64,000 bases of DNA from an uncultured Pseudomonadota bacterium (GTDB taxonomy: Bacteria > Babelota > Babeliae > Babelales > RVW-14), in assembly GCA_964446935.1 (NCBI GenBank), contig CAYUQI010000005.1:757-64756 (forward strand), read 5' to 3'. The stretch's first letter is position 1, and each line of letters begins with the position of its first letter. Shown piece after piece: positions 5,361-28,467 of the stretch. A program made the position numbers and the translations under genes. A model generated the notes under the pieces. The model was not told the origin of the DNA and did not search any database. It saw nothing but the letters and a program-made list of their open reading frames with translations.

Positions 5361-6905
5361 TTATATTCCAGGGAGCTCTTGATAACGAGCACAACAGGGT
5401 AATCCAACAGCTAAAAGCTTTGAGAGTGTTGCTGCAAGTTGTGGAATCCATACAAGCTTGTTGATTGTATGTGGTTTGAGTACTCCTGGTTGATATAAAG
5501 CGAGTGGGACATGGGTATCGTAATCATAAGGGGAGCGATGTGCGGTCCCATCAATATGTTTAGTAATAAAACAGTAGGGTTCTGGCATACAAATGAGGTC
5601 ACCGGAACGTGGAATGTAGAGCTGATTTTTGAAAAATATCTCAATATCGTTTGATCGGTAATGTTTTTTTGATAGTTCTTCCTTTGTCCATACGTTTTTA
5701 ATGCCTGGCTGGCTTAAAAGCAGATTCTTCAGGTCGTGTAAAATGTTCTTCCTTTGATCTGCTGGTATTGCTGCTGTATTCAAAAAGAACTGATTTGTTT
5801 TGAACGCTCGAACGATTTTTTCAATACCATATTTCTCGTGAATACATTTATTCATAGCTTTAATGAGTGGTTTGGATAGAATTCTTCGAGCCAGGGTAAA
5901 TCCTTGTTTTTCAAGATCCTCTGGTATAGGGGCAACGCCATGATCGGCGGTAAAGGCAAAGAGAGTGTTGTGTTTACCAGCTTTGCGATGGCAGAACCGT
6001 ATAAAATCACCAATTTGCGTATCCAACTTTAAAATCATTTCTTTCATGCGAGGATCATGCGGGCCGTATTCATGTCCAATCATATCTAAACTTGAAAGCG
6101 AAACCCAGAGTAGAAACAATCCATTACGGTGGGGTTTAAAATTAGCATTGATACATTGTTTTGCTAGATCAAGAAGCATCTGATTGGCCTGTGGGGTGCG
6201 CAAGAACAATAAACAATTTTTATCTTCATCCAACTCGTCATCGTCATTTTTCTGATACCGCTGATATTGTTTGTCAAGATCCATTGTCTTAATACCTGCA
6301 TTAAACTTTTGAACCCATAATGGAAGTTGATCAAAGTATCGTTTGCTTGATGTGAATGAGATAAGATCATTATCAAACCACAGTGCATGGCCAAGTTTAC
6401 CAGCCATTGCCATAGCAGCGCGTGCTTTGTGGGAAAGTGAGTAAACATTATGTGGCTGCTGTGGATTCGATGTTCGCATGATAACATCAGAAATAGTATC
6501 AACGAGTAATAGTTTGGTTGATTTGCCATCCAATGAATCATCGCCGAGGACGGCAGCCGAAGGGCTTGGGTCAGTACCGAATTTAGTTTTGCTTCCTTGT
6601 CGATCAATCCATCCATTGAGGATAACTCCGTGATCTTTGGCTACTGTGCCGGTACTCATTGTGGCGTGTCCAACGGCGGTCGTTGGTGATCCATGAGGAT
6701 GTCTGGCATTTGTATAAAAAACGCCTTTATGACAGAGCGTTTTTATGCCGTCTTTAAAGTGTGATTCTAGCCGTACAATATGATGATATGCACATTGATC
6801 AATAACAATGACAACAGCAAGAGATGGTGGATGTTTTTTGGATGCTGCATTAAGTACGGGAGTAAATAAGAGCAGTAGTAGTAACCATCGAATGCGAGGG
6901 ATCAT
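5361..6905 (-). CDS. secreted nucleotide pyrophosphatase/phosphodiesterase-like enzyme (alkaline phosphatase superfamily), paralogue B
   Basis: Start moved to the internal ATG at 6905 (MIPRIRWLLLLLLFTPVLNA signal peptide), which overlaps the upstream stop as ATGA. Motifs: VVIVIDQ, GSPTTAVGHATMSTG (nucleophile Thr region), LDMIGHEYGP, TADHG. Confidence 0.8.
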   Translation of the reverse strand: MIPRIRWLLLLLLFTPVLNAASKKHPPSLAVVIVIDQCAYHHIVRLESHFKDGIKTLCHKGVFYTNARHPHGSPTTAVGHATMSTGTVAKDHGVILNGWIDRQGSKTKFGTDPSPSAAVLGDDSLDGKSTKLLLVDTISDVIMRTSNPQQPHNVYSLSHKARAAMAMAGKLGHALWFDNDLISFTSSKRYFDQLPLWVQKFNAGIKTMDLDKQYQRYQKNDDDELDEDKNCLLFLRTPQANQMLLDLAKQCINANFKPHRNGLFLLWVSLSSLDMIGHEYGPHDPRMKEMILKLDTQIGDFIRFCHRKAGKHNTLFAFTADHGVAPIPEDLEKQGFTLARRILSKPLIKAMNKCIHEKYGIEKIVRAFKTNQFFLNTAAIPADQRKNILHDLKNLLLSQPGIKNVWTKEELSKKHYRSNDIEIFFKNQLYIPRSGDLICMPEPYCFITKHIDGTAHRSPYDYDTHVPLALYQPGVLKPHTINKLVWIPQLAATLSKLLAVGLPCCARYQELPGI

Positions 6906-8581
6906 AAAGTACCCTTGAGGCCTGGAAGGTCTTTGTAAATAGATGCGGATGGACGATTGATATTCAAAATAGTTGCCAAGGTGATTGGTAATTGGGCCGC
7001 CCATACCTTGTGTGTGACAACCATTTTGCCGAATCGTCCTTTTTGATAAAGGGCAATAGGAACGTGTGTGTCATAGTCGTAAGGACTTAAATGTGATGTG
7101 CCAGTTGGATAATTGGTAAGTAAACAGTACGGTTCAGGCATACAGATAAGGTCTCCGCTGCGGTTGTTATAGAGCTGATTTTTGTAGAAATTTTCAAGTT
7201 GATCATTTGCAAATGTTAAGTTGTGCAGTTCTTGTGTTGTCCAGACGCGTTTGATTCCTTTTTGTTTGAGTAAATAATTTTTAATGTCGGTGATGATAGC
7301 TTTGTAAACACTGGTATCGAGTGTTGCTATTGCTTCTTTATTAAATATAAAAAAAGTTGGCTCAAAAGCTTTGATAAATTCATCAACAGCGTAGTTTTTT
7401 TTGATCATGGTATTGATGTGTTCGATCAGTGGTTTGGCCATAATACGTTGTGCCATGGTAAAACCACGCTTATGCATAAGTTCTGGTATTGGACAAATAC
7501 CGTGATCAGCCGCTAGAACAAAAAGACAATTTTTTGCCCCAACGCGACGTTTAGCAAAACCCATGAGATCACTCATTTGTTTATCGATATGATAGAGTGT
7601 GTCAATGGCCTCCATAGAATCAGGGCCGAAGAAGTGTGTTACGAGGTCTAAATTACTAAAACTTACCCATAGTAACAATTTGTCTGATGCTTTGGTAAAA
7701 CTGTTGTTGATGCATACTTTGGCTAATTCAACCAATGTTTTACTTGATTGTGGTGTTTTTACAAACATTTCAAAAGGGGCTTTTGCTGTTTTATCAATAG
7801 GTAACGATGGTGAGGATATAAAACTGTATGAGTATCCTGCGTAATCGTAATTTTTTATATCTTGAAAACGATAGGCAGCATCGTGAAGAGGATATGCTGT
7901 TTTCCATGCGAACTGAGAGCGCTTGGCCATTGCGAGATCTTTATTGAATTCGACAAGCCATGAGGGTAATTGTTCAAAGTATTTTTTACTTGAAGTAAAG
8001 TTGCCTGATACTGTATCAAACCAAATGGCTTTGCCAAGACGTTGGGCACAGGCTATTGCAGGGTGGGCTTTGAGTGAAATTGAGAATGCCTTGTTGTGGG
8101 ATTTGGGCGAGCTTGCTAGAACAAATTGGTCTGATAGTCCATCAACTCGAGTGTTTTCACACGACTTGCCCATGATTTGGGGTGGCTGTTGATAAAAGAC
8201 TTCTGCTTGTTGGGATGGATCATCAACATAGTGAATTTTATTATATTTTTTGTCGAACCATTCATTGAGAACAGCCCCATGATCCTTTGGGAGTGTTCCT
8301 GTACTCAAAGCATGATGCCCTGGCGTTGTTTCTGGAATAGCATGTTGATGAAAGGCATTAGTGTAAAAAATTCCTTTATCAAGGAACTTTTTCAGTCCAT
8401 ACTGAAAATAGGGGCGCAGCTTGGGAATGTAATGATAGGCGAATTGATCGATAATACAGACGACGACAAGTTTGGGCTGACGATGTTTTGAATCTTTTGA
8501 CTGAAGTGATGGTACGTATAGGATGCTGCTTATATATGCAATACCTATAGCAGTCAATAATGACATGCGTTTTTTGATCAT
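6902..8581 (-). CDS. secreted nucleotide pyrophosphatase/phosphodiesterase-like enzyme (alkaline phosphatase superfamily), paralogue A
   Basis: 559 aa with a signal peptide. Motifs: VVCIIDQ, IPETTPGHHALSTG, LDLVTHFFGP, AADHG. The C-terminal SGDLICMPEPYC...SPYDYDTHVP is shared almost verbatim with paralogue B. Confidence 0.8.
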   Translation of the reverse strand: MIKKRMSLLTAIGIAYISSILYVPSLQSKDSKHRQPKLVVVCIIDQFAYHYIPKLRPYFQYGLKKFLDKGIFYTNAFHQHAIPETTPGHHALSTGTLPKDHGAVLNEWFDKKYNKIHYVDDPSQQAEVFYQQPPQIMGKSCENTRVDGLSDQFVLASSPKSHNKAFSISLKAHPAIACAQRLGKAIWFDTVSGNFTSSKKYFEQLPSWLVEFNKDLAMAKRSQFAWKTAYPLHDAAYRFQDIKNYDYAGYSYSFISSPSLPIDKTAKAPFEMFVKTPQSSKTLVELAKVCINNSFTKASDKLLLWVSFSNLDLVTHFFGPDSMEAIDTLYHIDKQMSDLMGFAKRRVGAKNCLFVLAADHGICPIPELMHKRGFTMAQRIMAKPLIEHINTMIKKNYAVDEFIKAFEPTFFIFNKEAIATLDTSVYKAIITDIKNYLLKQKGIKRVWTTQELHNLTFANDQLENFYKNQLYNNRSGDLICMPEPYCLLTNYPTGTSHLSPYDYDTHVPIALYQKGRFGKMVVTHKVWAAQLPITLATILNINRPSASIYKDLPGLKGTL

Positions 8582-13943: not shown

Positions 13944-14034
13944 AAAAAAGAGGGCACGGTACAGAGAAGTATTACCCCTGCTGCTTCCTTCCGGACCTGA
14001 CAGATTATGCAACACCTCAACTTACCATGCCCAA
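13944..14034 (-). ncRNA. ffs: signal recognition particle RNA (small 4.5S-type)
   Basis: The minus strand reads GGGCATGG...GTCAGGTCCGGAAGGAAGCAGC...CCGTGCCC followed by a T-run. The central block is the near-invariant SRP domain IV motif. The ends pair (GGGCATGG/CCGTGCCC) to close a single long hairpin. It lies directly upstream of dnaX. Boundaries are approximate. Confidence 0.8.
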
Positions 14035-14114
14035 TTTGTAAAGAACTTTGTTATGTCAAAATTTAAATTTACTGGCCTGCCATACGAAGCCACGAGCAAA
14101 GCGAGGGCGAAGTA

Positions 14115-14206
14115 TGGTGGAGAGAGAGGGATTCGAACCCTCGATGCCCCTTTCAGGACATACATGATTTCCAATCATGCGCTTTCGACCACTCAGCCAT
14201 CTCTCC
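14115..14206 (-). tRNA. tRNA-Ser (anticodon GGA), CCA encoded
   Basis: Minus strand: GGAGAGATGGCTGAGTGGTCGAAAGCGCATGATTGGAAATCATGTATGTCCTGAAAGGGGCATCGAGGGTTCGAATCCCTCTCTCTCCACCA. It has a 7-bp acceptor stem, an anticodon loop TTGGAAA, the long variable arm typical of class II tRNAs, and a GGTTCGAATCC T-loop. Confidence 0.92.
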
Positions 14207-15469: not shown

Positions 15470-16858
15470 TTATTTTTGTCCAATAACTTTATTAGACTCA
15501 ATGGTTGTTGTGTATTTCCTGCCAGTTAACATGGCCAAAAACGCCCATGCACAAGCGACGACGATAGAAATACCTGACCCTGCAACTAAGCATATATAAG
15601 CCGAACTAAAGTATGTTGTAAGTGCATTGAAGGTTGAGCCAGTTGTTTTTGAAGCTGTTCTACCAAATGATTCAATCCATGCTTTTGATTTAAATCTGAT
15701 ATCTTTTGTTGTTGGGATAAAAAGAATCTCTCTCAATGGGTGATTGATGCCGTAATTAAGCGCTCGAAGCACAACCATAACGATGAAGATAATTATGAGT
15801 TTAGGATAAAATACGGGCAATAAAGCCATTGCAAGAGTAATAATAGGCATCAGTATAAGGCTTGCTTGAACTCCAAAATGTTTGAGGAGTGTTGATGTGC
15901 CAAAAAGTGCAAAGAAAAAACTCAAAAATTGAAATGCACACGTGTATAAAAGCATAAATGAACTCATTGCGGTAACTTGATTGTGTGCTTCTATGGACAT
16001 GAGAACATGCATTTGATAATCAAAAATAATATTAATTACCTCATAACTGAATACGAGCCCGAAGATACCGAGCACGTAGGGCTGAGCAAGCATTTGTTTA
16101 AGACCTTCAAAAAGAGATGTCCTTTCTTTGGATGCTTCTTGTTTGATATCGGCTGTGTATGCAGCTTCATAGCCTCGCAAATGATCAGCGGGTATCTTTT
16201 TGATGATAATGCTGATGCAGCACATCGCCAAGATTAAAAGAAGTGCTGTGCTGCCTGTCAATAGTGGAATAATGATGTGTCCAGGGTATGCTATTTTTTC
16301 AATTAGAATCCAGCTTATAAATGTTGTTGATATGCCGCCGATGCGAGATCCTGCAACAATAAAGCCATAGGATTTTTTGGCAATGCCTGGGGTTGTTATT
16401 GAATTAATAAAGCTCCAAAAAGTTCCAACAATGAGTGCTTGAAAGAGGTCCATACAAATTTCAAATGCCCATCCAGTAATGCGTGATGAACTTGTTTGAG
16501 TATTAGGAATGCCGTAGACAGGGTGAGCGAACAAAAATGCAAATATGAGTGTGGCGCATGCATAAAAACCAAGAAAGGAGAAAACTACATATTGCCGTTT
16601 AAATGTATCAGTGATTTTCGAATGAAGCATCATAGCTGGAATGGTAAAAAAGACACTTAAAATTTTAGAGATCGGTTCATATTCTCTGCCAACAAACCCA
16701 AGAAATATTGATGTTTTAAATGATCGAAGAATTGAGTATGAGCCTATAATGAAGAAAAAGGTTGCTGCTGATAAAATAAGCTTAAGTCTTTCGCTGCTGT
16801 CTATTTGCAAATGTTTTTCAAGAAAAGAAAAAAATTTCGTTGTTAATCGAGTACTCAT
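15470..16858 (-). CDS. ATP/ADP translocase-type nucleotide transporter (NTT/Tlc family), paralogue 1
   Basis: 462 aa polytopic membrane protein. FWSFINSITTPGIAKKSYGFIVAGSRIGG resembles the Tlc FWxFANxIT...AKRFY block. FIPTTKDIRFKSKAWIESFGRTASK resembles the YIPLDxDxRxKGKA block. Confidence 0.8.
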   Translation of the reverse strand: MSTRLTTKFFSFLEKHLQIDSSERLKLILSAATFFFIIGSYSILRSFKTSIFLGFVGREYEPISKILSVFFTIPAMMLHSKITDTFKRQYVVFSFLGFYACATLIFAFLFAHPVYGIPNTQTSSSRITGWAFEICMDLFQALIVGTFWSFINSITTPGIAKKSYGFIVAGSRIGGISTTFISWILIEKIAYPGHIIIPLLTGSTALLLILAMCCISIIIKKIPADHLRGYEAAYTADIKQEASKERTSLFEGLKQMLAQPYVLGIFGLVFSYEVINIIFDYQMHVLMSIEAHNQVTAMSSFMLLYTCAFQFLSFFFALFGTSTLLKHFGVQASLILMPIITLAMALLPVFYPKLIIIFIVMVVLRALNYGINHPLREILFIPTTKDIRFKSKAWIESFGRTASKTTGSTFNALTTYFSSAYICLVAGSGISIVVACAWAFLAMLTGRKYTTTIESNKVIGQK

Positions 16859-16891: not shown

Positions 16892-18298
16892 TTAAAATTC
16901 TTCTTGTCCGTTAACTTGCCCAATTACCCGTTTGTTATCAATTGCATCTTGAAGTGTTTTGCCGAGAAAATACACAATAATGAGCCACAAAAAGTTAAGA
17001 GTTAGTCCTAACCCAAGGCTTGATATAAGGGCAAAGGCAGGTGTCGCGCCCTTAATGGATACATTGAAAAGTGATCCAAAACTTTTTGCGATACGCGATC
17101 CAAATGCATCGGTCCACGTTTTAGCTTTATATTTTATGTCTTTTGTTGTTGGGATATATAAAACTTCTCTGGTTGGATGATTAAAAGCATAATTAATTGA
17201 GCGCAAAGCAACAAGAACAGCAAAGAATATTCCTGCTGAAGGAATTATATAGGTTATTATAAGGAGGATCATGCAAAGAAGTGGAAAAATAAACAAGGAA
17301 AGTCGAATGCCAATAACACGCAAAAGAGGCGTTGTTCCAAATAAAGAAATACCAAGACCAATTAGGTTATAGAGAAAATAATAAAATGCGTAATATGCGG
17401 TCATAGCGCCGACGGATGGTGTTGTTGCATCTGCGTGAAGTGCTACCCACCAATCAAAAATAACAACCATGATTTCATAAAAGGCAACTAAGGAAAAGAT
17501 GCCAAGAACATAAGGGTTTCGAATCATGATAAAAAGCCCATCAAATGAGCTTTTGAATGAATTAATAAACCCCATTGAAGCTCTTTTTTTATGTTTTTCG
17601 AGTTGGTATGCTGCTTCGTAACCATGCATAAAATCATCAGAGACGTTTGTTATGAGCATATGGATAGAATATGCAGATGCAATTAACATACAGCTTCCTA
17701 TTGCTAAGGAACCTGGTAATAGCATTAATTGTGATTGCACATTTGTGTTTATTAGTATGAGATAAAGCGTTCCTGCTGAAAGGATTCCACCTATTTTTGA
17801 TCCTGCTGCAAAAAAACCATAGTAATTTTTTGCATCCTTAGGATTGTTGATGGAGTCTGCAAATGACCAGAAGACGGTGGCAAAAAAGGCATCAAAGCTT
17901 TCCATGAAAAAATAAAAGGCCCACCCAAGGAGTCGGCCTGAATTTACTTCTGTATTGGCAAGTCCATATACTGGATGCGTAAAGAGAAATGCAAAAATGA
18001 GACCCCCTATAGCATGAAAAAGCATAAAACAATATAAAAGGTGATGTCTTCGAAGCCAGTCAACAAGTTTTGAGTACAAAAGAATTAGCGGAATGATAAA
18101 AAATAAAGAATAAAGTTTTGCATTGGGAACTTGGTAAGCTCCAACCATTTTTGAAAAAATAGAAACTTTGAGTGGACGCCAAATAACAAGGCAACAGGAC
18201 ATGAGAAGAAAGGTTAATGAAAGAAAAAATACCTTGCGCTTAAACTCTGGTTTAATTCCCCACAAATCTTGAAACGTCAGTTTAAGCCGGTCTAGCAT
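16892..18298 (-). CDS. ATP/ADP translocase-type nucleotide transporter (NTT/Tlc family), paralogue 2
   Basis: 468 aa with the same blocks (FWSFADSINNPKDAKNYYGFFAAGSKIGG; LYIPTTKDIKYKAKTWTDAFGSRIAK). It aligns with paralogue 1 along its whole length. Confidence 0.8.
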   Translation of the reverse strand: MLDRLKLTFQDLWGIKPEFKRKVFFLSLTFLLMSCCLVIWRPLKVSIFSKMVGAYQVPNAKLYSLFFIIPLILLYSKLVDWLRRHHLLYCFMLFHAIGGLIFAFLFTHPVYGLANTEVNSGRLLGWAFYFFMESFDAFFATVFWSFADSINNPKDAKNYYGFFAAGSKIGGILSAGTLYLILINTNVQSQLMLLPGSLAIGSCMLIASAYSIHMLITNVSDDFMHGYEAAYQLEKHKKRASMGFINSFKSSFDGLFIMIRNPYVLGIFSLVAFYEIMVVIFDWWVALHADATTPSVGAMTAYYAFYYFLYNLIGLGISLFGTTPLLRVIGIRLSLFIFPLLCMILLIITYIIPSAGIFFAVLVALRSINYAFNHPTREVLYIPTTKDIKYKAKTWTDAFGSRIAKSFGSLFNVSIKGATPAFALISSLGLGLTLNFLWLIIVYFLGKTLQDAIDNKRVIGQVNGQEEF

Positions 18299-22473: not shown

Positions 22474-23574
22474 TTATAAACACGACAGTGTGATACAAAT
22501 AACAAGTGTGGCTAAGGTTAATATAAAAACCCAATCATTGAGAAATGAAAGCCTTGCTTTAATGGGTTCTTGAAGCTCTTTGCTTAAATGTTTTGTTGTT
22601 TGAAGGGTTAAGACAACATAGGTTTGAAATAAAAGAATCAATAATGAAAGAAATACGAGCAGGTAGTAAGTAAAGTCAACGTGTGTGCTATAACCAACAT
22701 GTGGAGAGACCCCATCGATGACGAGGCGGAAGAGCGCAAGTGTAGGAATTGCCGCTGCAACGTAACTGAGGCGTGATATGTCAGATATATCAATGAAAAG
22801 GCAAAATAGTGCAATGAAAAATAAGACAAACATTGGAAAATAAAGAGATGCAAGATTGCGAACCCCAATATTTTCAAAATTTATTGAAAATGCTGCAACT
22901 GGATAGTGTATAGAGAGTTCTGGGTCGGAATGATGTAAGTTGGCTTGAATATAACCCGTTTTTACTGATGCTTCTCGTGGTTGCCAATATCCAAGAAGAT
23001 TGTCCTTGGCAATGGTGATGTTTTGGCTGTCTGATTGAAAATAGAGTTCTTCTGGCGTTGCGCTTTTATTTTGAATAATAATGAAAAGTCGGTGATTTTC
23101 CATCGGAAAATTATGATAATCAAGGTTGGCTTTAAATGAGGTTTGAATGTGGTAACAAACAAGAACATCATGGTCTATGAGTTTGATAATAGGAGATGAT
23201 TTGTAGAGTAAAATTCCATTTTCTTGCAAAAGACTATTTTGAATCGTGAAGTTTTCGATTTGTTTAATTGATTCAGCACCTTGAGGGAATTTAAACCATA
23301 AAATCCCATCGATGATAAATTCATTCTTCGTAAATGAAAATGTTGGAAAGCTATTAATGTGCAAGCCAATGGTAACCAGAGAGGCTTTGTTTTTTGTCTT
23401 GGTCTTTAACTGTAGGATGTTAGGGATAGGGTCATTTGCTTCTGTACAACTATTTTTTAAAACAAGTAATCCTGTTATATATAAAGAGGCAATTGCAATG
23501 GCGCTTATACGAAATTTATTACTTTTAATCATGTTTAAAAGTATGTGTTTATATGTTGAATGATGAATATTCAT
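22474..23574 (-). CDS. pentameric ligand-gated ion channel (pLGIC, prokaryotic Cys-loop-receptor homologue)-like protein
   Basis: 366 aa with an N-terminal anchor/signal, then a roughly 200 aa beta-rich domain. That domain shows pLGIC-like patterns (VTIGLHINSFPTFSFTKNEFIIDGILWFKF; FKANLDYHNFPMENHRLFIIIQN, compare the FPFDxQ block). Four TM helices follow in M1-M2-M3-loop-M4 spacing (YFPMFVLFFIALFCLFI; RLSYVAAAIPTLALFRLVI; VDFTYYLLVFLSLLILLF; WVFILTLATLVICITL). Confidence 0.6.
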   Translation of the reverse strand: MNIHHSTYKHILLNMIKSNKFRISAIAIASLYITGLLVLKNSCTEANDPIPNILQLKTKTKNKASLVTIGLHINSFPTFSFTKNEFIIDGILWFKFPQGAESIKQIENFTIQNSLLQENGILLYKSSPIIKLIDHDVLVCYHIQTSFKANLDYHNFPMENHRLFIIIQNKSATPEELYFQSDSQNITIAKDNLLGYWQPREASVKTGYIQANLHHSDPELSIHYPVAAFSINFENIGVRNLASLYFPMFVLFFIALFCLFIDISDISRLSYVAAAIPTLALFRLVIDGVSPHVGYSTHVDFTYYLLVFLSLLILLFQTYVVLTLQTTKHLSKELQEPIKARLSFLNDWVFILTLATLVICITLSCL

Positions 23575-23589
23575 GATTTTCTTTCAATC

Positions 23590-24735
23590 TTAAATGATCC
23601 ATATTTTTTTGCCAAAAAGGTGTCGATTGGTTGGGTCAAAATCAATCGATAGGCCTTTGAAATCTTTGTTTTTTATGTTCGAAAGTTCTTTTAAGAGAGC
23701 TTCTTGGCTGCAATCTGGTGCTGTTTTGTTGAGTGCATCAACAATTAATTGTGCTGCAATGTAATAAGTAAATGATAAAATTGAAAAATCTTCATCTGGG
23801 AAATAGTTGGTTATATCGCGATGGTATTCAGTTGCGAGTTGAAATGTGGAAGTAACAGGGTCTGGAACAGGTGAGGCTACATGAAAAGCTACGCCTTTGT
23901 GTTGCAATATGTCCTGGGCGAGAAACGTTGAATCAATACCAAAAAATTTCGTTGTAAAACTTCCTTGTTCAAAAAAATAATTGATGAGCTTGATTGTCGG
24001 GGTACTTGTTGCAACACAAATGACTACGCGAGGATCTTGAGCGAGTAGTTTTTGAGCTGGCGTATGTATATCGATTGTGTAGCGATTGTATTGTTCAATT
24101 GCTACTGGTTTCTGATTGAGACTTTCAAGCGCTTTTGCCAACACATGTGTTGCTGCGGTAGAAAAATCATCATCAGCATGAAAAATAGCAATTTTAGTAA
24201 GACTAAGGGTTTTGACGATATGGTCAGCCAATGTTTCTACTTGTGGCTCTAGTAGCCCTGGGCCATTGATAATATGTGAAAGTGATGGATTCTTGAGTTC
24301 AGGGTGGCCGCCCCAAGGGAAGAGCATGGCAATTTTTTGTTGTTGGATGAGTGGTAGTACCGAAAGGATGCCGCGTGTTCCCATTACGCCGAAGAACATG
24401 GATACAGCGTATTTATGATATAAAAGTTCAATATTGTTTTTGGTTTTATCTGCTTCACCTTCATCATCAAGGCTTATTAAGCGTAGTTTTTTCCCTGCAA
24501 TGCCGCCTTGTTGGTTAATGTGTTCAAAATAACTATTGATAGCATTTTTTATAGTATTGCCATAAAAAGCGAAGTGTCCTGAAAAAGAGCCAGATTGACC
24601 AAAGACTATTTCCTTTTTCATATCAATAATAAGGTTGTCTTTGGAGATAGTTTGGCTGTTGAGGTGGTAAAAAAAAGAAAAAAGTAGAAAAAAAATAAGA
24701 AAATTACGCATCTCCGACCCCTTTTTTTGAAACAT
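23590..24735 (-). CDS. periplasmic ligand-binding protein, type-I PBP (LivJ/LivK / ANF-receptor-like)
   Basis: 381 aa with a signal peptide. The Leu/Ile/Val-binding-protein pattern is present: IVFGQSGSFSGHFAFYGNTIKNAINSYFEHINQQGGIAGKKLRLISLDDEGEADK. It ends 15 nt upstream of the pLGIC-like gene on the same strand. No ABC permease or ATPase is nearby. Confidence 0.75.
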   Translation of the reverse strand: MFQKKGSEMRNFLIFFLLFSFFYHLNSQTISKDNLIIDMKKEIVFGQSGSFSGHFAFYGNTIKNAINSYFEHINQQGGIAGKKLRLISLDDEGEADKTKNNIELLYHKYAVSMFFGVMGTRGILSVLPLIQQQKIAMLFPWGGHPELKNPSLSHIINGPGLLEPQVETLADHIVKTLSLTKIAIFHADDDFSTAATHVLAKALESLNQKPVAIEQYNRYTIDIHTPAQKLLAQDPRVVICVATSTPTIKLINYFFEQGSFTTKFFGIDSTFLAQDILQHKGVAFHVASPVPDPVTSTFQLATEYHRDITNYFPDEDFSILSFTYYIAAQLIVDALNKTAPDCSQEALLKELSNIKNKDFKGLSIDFDPTNRHLFGKKIWII

Positions 24736-25068
24736 GTCTTAAAATTCTTAAACGTTAACAGTTATTTTTGTATCGAATTGCGAACTTATTAGTCAATAAA
24801 ATGAGCGAAGGGGTCTTCCAAAACTCAAAATTTTTAACAATTGTTGAAATAACATAAGACATAGATATAAGTTACTTCATTAAAAATTGTTACAAATGGT
24901 GATTTTTGATGAAAAATGAAGGTTTTGTGATAAAAATTGATAATTTGTCCATCATTGATTTTGGGTAATGAAAAATAGTAATATAAAGCATAGGGTGGAA
25001 AAGGAGGAGGTGCGGATTTTTAAGGTGTTCTTAAAACTTCCTACCGATGTCTAACGAAGGAGATATTT

Positions 25069-25227
25069 ATGAAAAAGCTTTTAACGCTTTTGTTCTTACT
25101 TGGCATTTTATCTGCCAATGTACGTATGTTTGCGATGGAAGATGAAGATAAGGCAAATGCTTGGGATGATGACGAGAATGCACAATACGATGACGATGAT
25201 AGTTGCTATTATCCTGAGGAAGATTAG
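25069..25227 (+). CDS. small secreted acidic protein (52 aa; not in the supplied ORF track)
   Basis: AAGGAG lies 6 nt upstream of ATG 25069. Translation: MKKLLTLLFLLGILSANVRMFAMEDEDKANAWDDDENAQYDDDDSCYYPEED, a signal peptide plus a very acidic tail. Confidence 0.55.
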   Translation: MKKLLTLLFLLGILSANVRMFAMEDEDKANAWDDDENAQYDDDDSCYYPEED

Positions 25228-25249
25228 GTTTATACGTTAAGGAGTAGTC

Positions 25250-25486
25250 ATGAAAAAGTATATTGTTTTTCTTTTTGTGCTTAGTTTTGGATTAGGTGGG
25301 TTGCTTGTGGCCAAATGTACCAAGACCATTGGACATGTTCATAGACCAACAGTTTCTTATCAATGCAGAGCAAAGACCAAAGCATATTATGAACAATACT
25401 ACCCTAAATCAGTTCCAATATATTACGAAGCAGATGATACGTGCAAAATCTGTGGTTGTCACACGAGCAAACATAACAATAACTAG
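25250..25486 (+). CDS. small secreted Cys/His-motif protein, paralogue 1 (78 aa)
   Basis: AAGGAG RBS and an MKKYIVFLFVLSFGLGGLLVA signal peptide. The mature part has 5 Cys and ends in CKICGCHTSKHNNN. Confidence 0.65.
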   Translation: MKKYIVFLFVLSFGLGGLLVAKCTKTIGHVHRPTVSYQCRAKTKAYYEQYYPKSVPIYYEADDTCKICGCHTSKHNNN

Positions 25487-25540
25487 CTGTTGCAGCTATT
25501 GTTATGCTGCTATGATTCTCGAAACAAAAAGGAATTGGTG

Positions 25541-25744
25541 ATGAAAAAGGGGCTGCTTACTCTTCTTGTACTGAGTTTAGGAATGGGGTTGCTGTGTGGT
25601 AAATGCATCAATCCCAAGCATCAAAGAATTCGAGGAGGCACAAAAAAATATACCTGCTCAGTAAAAAACTCAGAAGTAAATAATTTTGATAATGGTTATT
25701 GCAAAAATTGTGGCTGTCACAGTAGCGATCACGACAATTTGTAA
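25541..25744 (+). CDS. small secreted Cys/His-motif protein, paralogue 2 (67 aa)
   Basis: Start moved to the internal ATG 25541 (AAGGA upstream; MKKGLLTLLVLSLGMGLL signal peptide). The Cys spacing matches paralogue 1, and it ends in CKNCGCHSSDHDNL. Confidence 0.65.
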   Translation: MKKGLLTLLVLSLGMGLLCGKCINPKHQRIRGGTKKYTCSVKNSEVNNFDNGYCKNCGCHSSDHDNL

Positions 25745-25746
25745 CA

Positions 25747-28467
25747 TTAACCACGTTCTTCAATGGTAACAATTGACCCTGTTGCACCTTTTTCCACAAT
25801 AAAGTGGACTGGAAAATTGTGCTTAAATTCTGGTAAATGCGATACAATAATAATTTTTGAAAATTCTGATTGTATTGCGTAGATTGAGTCCATAATGTGA
25901 GCAAGCCCCTCTTCATCCTGTGATCCAAATCCTTCGTCGATTACAAGCGTTTGTAAGGCTGTTCCAGCCCTTCGTGCCAGCAATTTTGCAATGGCGATAC
26001 GGAGGGCAAAATCAATTCTAAAGGCCTCCCCGCCTGAATACATTTCATATGGTCTCATTCCAGCTGCATCTGCTATGTGAATATCCAGGGTTTCTTTAAC
26101 CCCGCCACTTTTGAGATCTTTGAGCGATTCAATAAAAATTTGTGCCTGATTATCAGAAAGTTTACTCAAAAGAGTGTTTGCTTCTTGTTCAATTTCCGGG
26201 ATTACATCTTCAATCAAGAGAGCCTGAATGCCGTTTTTGCTTAATGCAGCAGCAATAGTTTGATAATCATCGATTTCTGTTTGTAGTGTTACGAGGTGGC
26301 TTTTGTGTTGTTCTTGCAACTCTTTTATTTTTTTTAATCTGATAAGGTCATTTTCTATGCTGCCTATCTGTTGTAGATGAAGCTCTTTGGCGGTTGCTAG
26401 TTGTTGTCGTTGTTTGGTTTGTTGCTCAATAATGCTTACAAGGTTTTGCTCTTCCTGTTCCAGTGTAGGCATTGATGCGCATTGGTTTCTCATTTCTATA
26501 AGTATCTGTTTAAATCGTTTTAATTCTTGGTATTGCAGATGAATAGATTTGGCCTGCTCACTTTGGAGTATTTGTGATTGATTGAATGTTTCTAATTGAT
26601 GAATGGTGCCTTCCAGTGTTGTCCGTTGTTCTTGAATTTGTGCATAAGCGGTTGGATCATAGGCGATTGCGATTTTCTGGCGCTCAAGATCATTGATAGT
26701 TTCCAGAAGAGTTATCGCAGTAGCATTGTGAGCAATAGTATGAGCTTGCTCTTGTTCATGCTGTGTTATGTTATTCTGTGATTGGGTTGCAATTGCTTGT
26801 AAATCATGTGATTGTTTCCGTAAACCCTCAAGTTCGACTTTATCTTTTTCAAGATTTATTTCGAATTCTTGGATGGCCTTGCTATTTTCTTGTTCTTGAA
26901 ATGAATGCTGCATTAATTGCGCGAGCTGTTTTTGTTGATTATTAAGAATTTCGTGTTGTTCTAATAAAAGATTTTTAAGCGTTTTTATAAGATTGCCAAC
27001 GCGATCAAGTCGATGTTGCAAAAAAGTTTGATTATGAAGTATTTGATGCGTTAAAAATAGCTTTCGTTTGTTGGTGAGTAATTGTTCACACAAAGGGCAA
27101 GCTGGGTTGGCCGTATCATTGATAATTTTTTGCTTTGTTGTGATCTCTTCAAGTGCGTTCTTAACCCAATTGCCGCGTTGAATGAGCGTTTGGTAAAATG
27201 CCTTACGTTTTTCAAACTGTTTTTGCGTTGTATCAAGTGTATCTTGTTGTTTTTTTACGAGCTCTTGGCTTTGTTGAACATCATTCTGTTTACGCTTAAG
27301 CGCGTCAATCTTTTGTTGCAGGTCAAGGATTTGTTGTTGTTTTGAGGCTATTAATGTTTGATGATGTTGGTAGGTGAGGTCGTCTTGTTGAGCAAGCAAG
27401 TGTAGTGCTGCGCGTTTTTTTTCATGTTCACTTGTAATGTGATTGATGTGTTGTTGGAGCTGCTCTTTGAGGTGTAAAAGTTTTTCTTGTACGACAAAAT
27501 GTGATTGTTGTGAATCTATAAGCTTTTTTTCATGTTCTTTAATGAGCTTTAATTCTTGTTGAAGGTGTTGTATGGATTGTTGGTTTCGTGACTGAGCATG
27601 AAATGTGCGCCATTTCTGAACACGTGCTAGCCAAAGGGCGGTTGTTTCTTGATACTGGCGTTGCTTGTCTTCCAGATCGCGTTGTATTTGCGTTAAGGCA
27701 TGCTTTTGGTTGCGGCATGTGACAAGGGAGCTCTCGCTTCCTTGGATGCATTTAAAGAGATTTTCAAGCTCGCAAGAGAGTGAGGTTATGGTCTCCTTGG
27801 TTTTTGTGTACATCTCATTACATTCACCTTCACGTTCCAGATCTTTGATGTATTGTTCTTGTAGTGCGCTGATGGTGCGTTTTTCTTCAGATAAAATCTT
27901 TATTTTTTCAAGTGCTTGTTGGGCAAGGTCATCGTAGTGGGTCAGCCCTAGGATTGTTGCAAGGATCTGTTTGCGGTCTTTCGCTGATTTTTTTGAAAAT
28001 TCGTTTGCTTGTCCTTGTCGCAGGAAAGCAGAATTAATAAATGTTTCGTAATCAAGTCCAATAATATGTTCAATACGTGCTTGTGTAGCTCGAACAGTTT
28101 TCTCGGTGAGAGACATAAAAGCACTGGTTGTCTGATTTAATGTTTCAAAATCAAGGGCATGATATGGTTTTCCATATGTTTTGGCAAATTCTCTGCGAAC
28201 GCGATATCTTAGCCCATTGCATGAAAACTCAAGGCACACCATCATGCGTGTTTGCCCAAGGCGCAGCAGCCCTTCATCAGCGCGTGTGGTACCTGAAGCC
28301 TTTCGTGCTTGGCCCCATACAGCCCACGTCAATGCATCAAGCAAGGCTGTTTTGCCATGTCCATTCTTGCCTGATAGGCATATGAGTGTATGGTCTTTGA
28401 AGTCGATGCGTTGAATCGGCTCCCCATAACTTAAAAAATTTTTGAGTTCAAGGATGTGTGGAATCAT
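25747..28467 (-). CDS. sbcC: SbcC/Rad50-family DNA repair ATPase
   Basis: 906 aa with N-terminal Walker A GKNGHGKTALLDAL and a very long Q/E/L-rich coiled coil. A central CxxC hook lies within NPACPLCEQ. C-terminal signature YSGGEAFRIDFALRIA and Walker B LVIDEGFGSQD. Confidence 0.85.
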   Translation of the reverse strand: MIPHILELKNFLSYGEPIQRIDFKDHTLICLSGKNGHGKTALLDALTWAVWGQARKASGTTRADEGLLRLGQTRMMVCLEFSCNGLRYRVRREFAKTYGKPYHALDFETLNQTTSAFMSLTEKTVRATQARIEHIIGLDYETFINSAFLRQGQANEFSKKSAKDRKQILATILGLTHYDDLAQQALEKIKILSEEKRTISALQEQYIKDLEREGECNEMYTKTKETITSLSCELENLFKCIQGSESSLVTCRNQKHALTQIQRDLEDKQRQYQETTALWLARVQKWRTFHAQSRNQQSIQHLQQELKLIKEHEKKLIDSQQSHFVVQEKLLHLKEQLQQHINHITSEHEKKRAALHLLAQQDDLTYQHHQTLIASKQQQILDLQQKIDALKRKQNDVQQSQELVKKQQDTLDTTQKQFEKRKAFYQTLIQRGNWVKNALEEITTKQKIINDTANPACPLCEQLLTNKRKLFLTHQILHNQTFLQHRLDRVGNLIKTLKNLLLEQHEILNNQQKQLAQLMQHSFQEQENSKAIQEFEINLEKDKVELEGLRKQSHDLQAIATQSQNNITQHEQEQAHTIAHNATAITLLETINDLERQKIAIAYDPTAYAQIQEQRTTLEGTIHQLETFNQSQILQSEQAKSIHLQYQELKRFKQILIEMRNQCASMPTLEQEEQNLVSIIEQQTKQRQQLATAKELHLQQIGSIENDLIRLKKIKELQEQHKSHLVTLQTEIDDYQTIAAALSKNGIQALLIEDVIPEIEQEANTLLSKLSDNQAQIFIESLKDLKSGGVKETLDIHIADAAGMRPYEMYSGGEAFRIDFALRIAIAKLLARRAGTALQTLVIDEGFGSQDEEGLAHIMDSIYAIQSEFSKIIIVSHLPEFKHNFPVHFIVEKGATGSIVTIEERG

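Follow-up and report, generated by a model that had tools for sequence, protein, structure and literature searches.

In the 64 kb stretch of DNA analysed here (the window), the 1 kb between a periplasmic-binding-protein gene and sbcC contains three short open reading frames, ORF1–ORF3, which raises the questions of whether these are genuine genes and what their products might do. The original prediction described three small tandem genes, each with a strong ribosome binding site, and all three were found, on the + strand, where it had placed them (Table 1). A ribosome binding site precedes each frame, but the AAGGA sequence of ORF3 is weaker than the other two. In each of the three products an initial MKK leads into a run of hydrophobic residues that ends in a small one.

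Only 2 nt separate the stop codons of ORF3 and sbcC, and at all 11 independent loci examined a gene of the ORF2/ORF3 family described below is convergent with sbcC and lies a few bases from its stop (5–12 nt in relatives). Stop codons this close mean that the transcripts of ORF3 and sbcC must overlap or terminate inside the opposite gene. sbcC is a positional marker and the one constant neighbour of the family, and no operon partner. A promoter scan detected no sigma-70-like site on the + strand upstream of ORF1, and the k-mers shared upstream of the cassette by eight loci did not exceed what shuffled sequences gave, with no conserved operator identified; alignment of the 5' regions revealed only a short similarity between loci L007 and L005. 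The hairpin at the ORF2 stop codon, a candidate from a consensus scan, could provide weak attenuation ahead of ORF3.

Table 1. Positions within the window of ORF1–ORF3, associated elements and flanking genes
Feature	Position	Strand	Remarks
Periplasmic-binding-protein gene	23590-24735	-	Divergent from ORF1–ORF3
ORF1 Shine-Dalgarno, GAAGGAG	25056..25062	+	6 nt to ATG; read from sequence
ORF1, 52 aa, acidic peptide gene	25069..25227	+	Read from sequence
ORF2 Shine-Dalgarno, AAGGAG	25239..25244	+	5 nt to ATG; read from sequence
ORF2, 78 aa, type A member	25250..25486	+	Predicted signal peptide, residues 1-21 (25250-25312); mature basic domain, residues 22-78 (25313-25483), net charge +5
ORF2 knuckle motif, C65-K-I-C68-G69-C70-H-T-S-K-H75	25442..25474	+	
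Short hairpin, TAGCTGTTGCAGCTA, 6-bp stem	25484..25498	+	Starts at ORF2 stop codon, followed by T-rich stretch; consensus scan
ORF3 Shine-Dalgarno, AAGGA (weaker)	25529..25533	+	7 nt to ATG; read from sequence
ORF3, 67 aa, type B (core) member	25541..25744	+	Predicted signal peptide, residues 1-20 (25541-25600); mature domain, residues 21-67 (25601-25741), net charge +4
ORF3 knuckle motif, C54-K-N-C57-G58-C59-H-S-S-D-H64	25700..25732	+	
sbcC, 906 aa	25747..28467	-	Pfam AAA_23 and SbcC_Walker_B; convergent with ORF3

Conservation of the three-gene cassette

Six independently assembled public contigs matched the window with 100% identity over this region, in stretches ranging from 911–986 bp to 3.2 kb, indicating that the region is not an assembly artefact. 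No allelic variation was seen among these six contigs carrying the window's allele. Public gene calls on several of the identical contigs skip both ORF2 and ORF3, and the 67-residue ORF3 product was not found in the public protein collection; contigs from several samples do carry a record of the exact ORF1 product.

The region was compared with related loci (L002/L003, L004, L005/L006, L007, L008, L009, L010/L011, L012 and L013). A counterpart of ORF3, designated type B, was present at every one of these, and a counterpart of ORF2, designated type A, lies just upstream of it in L002/3/8, L005/6, L007, L010/11, L012 and L013. In most loci the acidic peptide gene comes first, followed by type A and then type B. 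The presence of two paralogues in the same order at most loci indicates that their duplication predates these lineages. An ORF1-like gene, encoding a signal peptide and an acidic tail, precedes the pair in L002/3/8, L005/6 and L007 and possibly in L012; its absence from L004, L009 and L010 indicates that ORF1 is accessory. The usual upstream neighbours in relatives are waaA, a gene for an unknown membrane protein and the binding-protein gene. The original prediction had named presence in relatives as a test, and the cassette genes were found there at the same locus, with their order intact in most.

Amino acid identity between the window and its relatives was 46–54% for SbcC and 43–54% for the binding protein, compared with 45–58% for type B, 31–45% for type A and 30–37% for ORF1. 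Judged by these figures, the constraint on type B is about as strong as that on the neighbouring housekeeping genes. A broad alignment (A3) was too divergent for pattern scanning and a narrow type B subset was used instead, which located two genome loci and one metagenome locus; viral contigs scanned with the same subset contained no copy, and a scan of genome contigs with the neighbouring binding protein as query gave no match. Codon changes were counted for L002 and L008, the closest pair of genomes, and synonymous changes exceeded non-synonymous ones in ORF1 (3:1), type A (22:8) and type B (9:2), an excess indicating that all three genes are under purifying selection.

That the three frames are real genes is borne out by their retention at the same locus in relatives, by the 22 further family proteins described below and by the synonymous excess. 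The opposing reading, that ORF1–ORF3 are chance open frames, could draw on the uncalled ORF2 and ORF3 of identical public contigs and on the missing ORF3 product, but has next to no chance of being correct and is effectively refuted by the conservation data, with sequence, order and position conserved across lineages, invariant residues, ribosome binding sites and the excess of synonymous changes. The cassette is a lineage-specific three-gene unit (ORF1, type A and type B) of a Gram-negative uncultured bacterium, probably a host-dependent one.

The ORF1 product has a signal-peptide-like N-terminus of approximately residues 1–22 (ending in RMFA and followed by MEDED) and then about 30 extremely acidic residues, among which are 15 Asp or Glu, a single Lys and a single Cys, giving a net charge of about -14. 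This agrees with its earlier description as an extremely acidic mature peptide. Most simply, a peptide of this composition would pair with the basic products as a partner of opposite charge, or else bind hard cations.

A family of small Cys/His proteins and its predicted export

The ORF2 and ORF3 products are 38% identical (E = 7e-06 in a single comparison), and the proposal that they are paralogues is upheld. A word-indexed search with ORF2 alone returned only the self-match. An exhaustive HMMER search with a profile built from ORF2 and ORF3 against 1.84 billion representative proteins (E<=1e-3) returned 24 proteins, consisting of the window's own ORF2, one false positive (the repeat protein P0013) and 22 further members of 66–98 aa with the same layout as ORF2 and ORF3. 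Members from the search and those read from related loci were combined into a family set of 34 distinct sequences.

Across 24–28 aligned sequences C23, C39, C65, C68, G69, C70 and H75 (ORF2 numbering) are invariant and H29, Y37 and F58 nearly so. A His is found 4–8 residues after the first Cys in 34/34 members, including those that lack H29. The invariant residues and this His give the family signature X-C-x(4-8)-H ... Y-x-C ... C-x2-C-G-C-x4-H, which holds five invariant Cys and two His. The Cys/His pattern noted in the original prediction is therefore conserved in homologues, but the exact string proposed, CKxCGCHxSxH, is not its conserved form: it occurs in 9/34 members and a His directly follows CGC in 17/34, whereas CxxCGC is invariant in 34/34. 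In six-frame translation of the 64 kb window the copies of C-K-x-C-G-C-H-x-S-x-H at 25442 and 25700 are the only two, and the shorter C-x2-C-G-C-H is likewise confined to these two sites in any frame.

The mature chain contains exactly five Cys in 32/34 members, carries a net charge of 0 to +17 (median +4 over the 34) and is approximately 46–57 aa long in the basic paralogues. Type A proteins are distinguished by a Tyr-rich insert (AFY...FY) and often by a tail rich in Ala, Pro, Lys and Ser, and type B proteins follow the pattern KCIN..H.K..Y.C.VK.SE..NFDNGYCKNCGCH.SDHDN. The loops between the Cys residues differ in length among members, and the C-terminal tails vary too.

No family in Pfam, NCBIfam, PHROGs or PADLOC matched these proteins, and 19 members searched against Pfam at E<=10 gave no match. 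Matches to PDB sequences, which were to antibody CH1 domains and His tags (E>=0.17), were spurious. The motif had not been recognised from any described family in the original prediction, and no credible match was found in any of these five collections. A resemblance between C-E-N-P-K-H of ribosomal protein L36 and C-I-N-P-K-H of ORF3 was not accompanied by a Pfam match and is taken as coincidence. ORF2 and ORF3 belong to a previously undescribed protein family restricted to one uncultured lineage; the family is new, but it falls within a known general type, that of small, exported proteins bearing Cys and His and a metal knuckle.

The leaders of family members are 17–25 residues long and consist of an MKK n-region and a hydrophobic core. 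The residue at -1, two before the first invariant Cys, is small in 34/34 members (Ala in 23, Gly in 5, Ser in 5 and Cys in 1), and that at -3 is Leu in 21, Val in 7, Ala in 3, Ile in 2 and Cys in 1. By our own count the signal peptidase I pattern of basic n-region, h-region, small -1 residue and aliphatic or small -3 residue is thus present among the 34 members, in line with the signal peptides originally proposed, and export and cleavage of family members are predicted from this pattern. The leaders are atypical in places, with Leu at -3, Lys at +1 (16/34) and Pro at +1 (two members). The strongly basic early part of the mature region counts against export, since in E. coli such regions are known to interfere with the Sec pathway, and Pro at +1 counts against cleavage in the two members concerned, since it blocks signal peptidase I at that bond. 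A lipobox ([LVI][ASTVI][GAS]C) was not found in any of the 34 members. The residue before the invariant Cys is Lys (in 16/34), Arg, Ala, Thr, Pro, Glu, Asn, His or Ser, and this mostly Lys position is incompatible with a lipobox and with identification of these proteins as lipoproteins.

Proposed metal binding and alternative roles

When the full-length ORF3 product was modelled with AlphaFold2 from a 19-sequence alignment the pLDDT was 71, rising to 85–91 over the C-terminal half, and for the mature 47-residue form the mean pLDDT was 89.3 with a pTM of 0.65. The mature ORF3 domain is thus predicted with confidence to be compact. Comparison of the model with the PDB by Foldseek produced nine weak, non-significant matches (E = 0.87–9.3; best probability 0.21), all of them to rubredoxins or to the Zn-bound rubredoxin mimic METP. 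A profile comparison by hhalign with a small hand-compiled rubredoxin alignment paired the family knuckle with the second rubredoxin knuckle over 15 columns at 19.5% probability, an extent too short for whole-domain similarity.

As in rubredoxins and zinc ribbons, the C-x2-C-G knuckle of the family is preceded by an aromatic residue, and the central Y-x-C-x-V stretch, KKYTCSV, resembles the first rubredoxin knuckle, which is KKYTCTVCG in Clostridium pasteurianum. However, only one complete knuckle is present here, the second Cys of the first knuckle being replaced by Lys, and the family has in addition a Cys at mature position 2, a Cys after the Gly, two His and a signal peptide. With a single C-x2-C-G, an upstream Y-x-C-x-[VI]-K that lacks a second Cys, and no Pfam match, these proteins were not assigned to the rubredoxins (PF00301). 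The C-x2-C-G element resembles a metal knuckle of the rubredoxin or zinc-ribbon type, whilst the family itself is no rubredoxin. Identification as c-type cytochromes was also rejected, the haem motif CxxCH being present in 0/34 members.

A second likeness is to E. coli HypB, in which a CxxCGC motif forms a Ni(II) site of picomolar affinity with the N-terminal amine, Cys2, Cys5 and Cys7 as ligands, and a peptide of this motif also binds Zn(II) (PMC12284835, PMC7055735). The same six-residue string C-x-x-C-G-C is the one invariant in the family, a motif shared without homology. In HypB, a GTPase of the cytoplasm, it starts at residue 2 within a disordered extension and forms a square-planar Ni(II) site, whereas in the family it is internal, 10–13 or more residues from the C-terminus of a folded and predicted exported domain. 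There is no GTPase domain in the family, which has instead an invariant His four residues after the string, two more Cys and another His. It is suggestive by analogy that a different invariant Cys occupies predicted mature position 2, as compared with the placement in HypB.

The odd number of Cys (five in 32/34 members), the two conserved His and the weak rubredoxin-type structural matches favour metal over pure disulfides, and of the two options originally offered, a compact metal site or a disulfide knot, the metal site fits better. Counted against metal is the rarity of Cys-based sites in the oxidising periplasm, where DsbA favours disulfides. No metal transporter or metal regulator was found beside the cassette at any locus examined. 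Small Sec-exported periplasmic metal binders such as CusF, CopC and ZraP are known, as are metallothioneins (SmtA/BmtA) that use Cys/His clusters, but the periplasmic metallochaperones mostly employ Met, His or Asp ligands rather than Cys and the bacterial metallothioneins are cytoplasmic. No sequence or fold similarity of the family to either group was found.

The following explanation is proposed. All three products would carry Sec-type signal peptides, and signal peptidase I would cut the basic paralogues one residue before the invariant Cys. These paralogues would then fold into a compact domain held by a metal, most likely Zn(II) but possibly Ni(II) or Cu, with ligands drawn from the invariant Cys5His2 set, part of which is a rubredoxin-like C-x2-C-G knuckle lengthened to CxxCGC-x4-H. 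Seven ligands could be accommodated by a single tetrahedral site with spares, or by two sites that share a bridging thiolate. The grounds for a metal-held fold are the odd number of Cys, the conservation of the His, the geometry of the knuckle and a ligand string of the HypB type. The ORF2- and ORF3-type miniproteins would serve in metal binding or metal handling in the periplasm or envelope, and the very acidic ORF1 peptide would be a co-expressed counter-charged partner or hard-cation binder. For the metal-held fold and the metal-binding or metal-handling role of these miniproteins we estimate a probability of roughly 50%. The explanation is weakened by the absence of ORF1 from L004, L009 and L010, from which it follows that ORF1 is not obligatory.

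An unlikely alternative is that the basic proteins are secreted cationic peptides stabilised by disulfides, such as toxins, antimicrobials or effectors directed at the host, and are kept neutral by the anionic ORF1 peptide until release, for which the anionic pro-segments that neutralise cationic defensins provide a model. Their small size, Cys-richness, basic charge and predicted export would suit such a role, as would the co-encoded peptide of opposite charge and the variability of the inter-Cys loops and C-terminal tails. The probable lifestyle of the source bacterium would suit it too. Alongside housekeeping genes (lon, waaA, rodA, rpsB, dnaE, dnaX, der and the SRP RNA) the window contains two tandem genes with weak matches to the NTP/NDP-exchange (TLC) transporter family, and orthologues of both in relatives match Pfam TLC. 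This family is characteristic of obligate intracellular bacteria, so the presence of these nucleotide-translocase genes near the cassette makes a host-dependent lifestyle likely, and the bacterium is probably host-dependent. However, a disulfide knot leaves an odd Cys and gives the invariant His no role, and type B evolves no faster than its housekeeping neighbours, unlike typical fast-evolving effectors and toxins. Moreover, there is a single copy at each genome locus with no secretion-system or immunity genes nearby, and type B persists in L004, L009 and L010 without ORF1. For the signalling-peptide, toxin and effector roles entertained in the original prediction nothing was found in support, and the divergence of type B at the rate of the flanking housekeeping genes is unlike that of a rapidly evolving effector. 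The genes neighbouring the cassette across loci encode the periplasmic binding protein, the unknown membrane protein, WaaA, SbcC and RodA; no enzyme of the modifying type (a radical SAM protein, a cyclase or the like) and no dedicated exporter is adjacent at any locus, and identity as a RiPP precursor was rejected.

A structural role appears decidedly improbable. The basic proteins would here be parts of the envelope that bind polyanions (LPS, peptidoglycan or ORF1), perhaps cross-linked through the unpaired Cys, and OmcA of Chlamydia, a small, exported, Cys-rich envelope protein of an obligate intracellular Gram-negative bacterium, provides a loose parallel. Basic domains, disordered tails rich in Ala, Pro, Lys and Ser in several members (mostly type A), a thiol left by the odd Cys count for intermolecular bonds and conservation at a housekeeping-like rate are all consistent with this, and the LPS gene waaA is nearby, probably through mere synteny. 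OmcA, however, is a lipoprotein that contains many more Cys and lacks a conserved pattern of His, and no similarity between it and the family was detected; the family resembles no known envelope protein family. Nor does a structural role account for the invariant His and the CxxCG knuckle, and there is no lipobox or other anchor.

It is very unlikely that the N-terminal segment is instead an uncleaved inner-membrane anchor holding a zinc-ribbon-like Cys/His domain in the cytoplasm. The hydrophobic core is rather long, with leaders of 17–25 residues in total, and the flank that follows it carries more positive charge than the one at the N-terminal end, an arrangement for which the positive-inside rule favours a C-terminus in the cytoplasm. 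The cytoplasm is the typical location of Cys/His zinc sites, and Pro at +1 in two members points in the same direction. Against this, the uniformly small -1 residue (34/34), the -3 pattern and the polar or helix-breaking residues before the predicted cleavage site (GGLQS before K, SQLDA before A) are the hallmark of a cleaved signal, and the ORF1 product, encoded in the same putative operon, shows a classical signal peptide ahead of its acidic mature portion.

A bolder form of the metal-binding explanation, which we regard as unlikely, would make the family a new class of exported metal binder. In its Cys5His2 domain of 45 residues, a CxxCGC site like that of HypB would be joined by a second half-site made of Cys and His; the arrangement might be binuclear, or might use the N-terminal amine freed by signal-peptide cleavage beside the position-2 Cys. 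A host-dependent lineage would employ such a domain to capture Zn or Ni, or to deliver them, either in the periplasm or extracellularly, with the poly-acidic ORF1 peptide as a dedicated partner.

Significance for the family and its lineage

ORF2 and ORF3 illustrate how automatic gene calling overlooks genes of this kind, and the family merits a database entry under the signature X-C-x(4-8)-H...Y-x-C...C-x2-C-G-C-x4-H even on an ordinary reading of its function. Retention of the cassette at one locus, while housekeeping proteins have diverged to about 45–55% identity, suggests a function important to the lineage. If metal is bound as proposed, these exported Cys/His domains would rank among the smallest metal binders of their kind known, and would add a rare case of a thiolate-based metal site that operates beyond the cytoplasm. 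Their lineage is probably an intracellular one, and within host cells the restriction of metals is a principal means of defence.

Small-gene calling and the convergent sbcC junction

Automatic gene calls on public contigs identical to the window (L014-L018) include the acidic ORF1 and leave out both Cys-rich paralogues, ORF2 (type A) and ORF3 (type B), which together span 25250-25744. The 67-aa ORF3 product was absent from a collection of 15 billion proteins, and the family is under-represented in protein databases because such small-gene calls are missed. The stop codons of convergent ORF3 and sbcC lie 2 nt apart (25742-25749), with an equivalent gap of 5-12 nt in four related loci (L002, L005, L007 and L010). 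This leaves no space for an intergenic terminator at the ORF3/sbcC junction and the convergent transcripts must therefore overlap. In the ORF1 leader region, L007 and L005 have in common a short sequence, GTGCGCAATT-T-GCTTT, that precedes the start codon by about 40-60 nt; neither the window nor L002 shows a clear copy of it.

Features of the window and of related loci
Feature	Location	Strand	Details
Type I phosphodiesterase/nucleotide pyrophosphatase paralogues, tandem	Window 5361-7004; 6902-8581	-	
Bacterial small SRP RNA	Window 13945-14036	-	Rfam RF00169, 50.9 bits
tRNA-Ser	Window 14115-14206		
NTP/NDP-exchange (TLC, ATP/ADP translocase) family, tandem	Window 15470-16858; 16892-18298	-	
Conserved membrane protein	Window 22474-23574	-	362-366 aa; flanked by binding-protein gene and waaA
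Membrane protein orthologue	L008 4848-5936	-	
Split binding-protein gene	L010 4650-5775	-	Also in L011
Very large ORF	L004 8581-13506	+	About 1600 aa; between type B gene and sbcC
Shared leader sequence	L007 1990-2040; L005 9250-9300		ORF1 leader

Variation around the small genes

In loci L010 and L011 the periplasmic-binding-protein gene adjacent to the cassette is broken into two ORFs of 161 and 181 aa and is probably a pseudogene. Both small family genes are intact in these loci despite the split, which argues against their functional dependence on that binding protein. Neither ORF1 nor type A occurs in the L004 locus, which also lacks the binding-protein and membrane-protein genes; the large ORF inserted there has a helical-repeat-like sequence with no Pfam match.

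Searches of Pfam and PDB with the window membrane protein produced no match. Its topology, comprising an N-terminal TM, an external domain of ~200 aa, three TMs, a loop and one further TM, resembles that of a prokaryotic pentameric ligand-gated ion channel, and the L008 orthologue gave a faint, below-threshold match to Neur_chan_memb (E = 0.039). Two copies of this membrane protein are present in L010.

Other window genes and lifestyle

As listed, the phosphodiesterase paralogue ORFs overlap by about 100 nt, and the true start of the downstream paralogue is probably internal to its listed ORF. The SRP RNA adjoins tRNA-Ser and rpsB, the latter encoding an unusually long protein (360 aa) with a partial match to the 'sunset domain' S2 variant model that falls below the model's cutoff. 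The tandem translocase-like genes match the TLC family weakly (E about 1e-15), and their orthologues in L004 and L005 match Pfam TLC. The presence of these TLC-type genes suggests that the organism has a host-dependent, energy-parasitic lifestyle.
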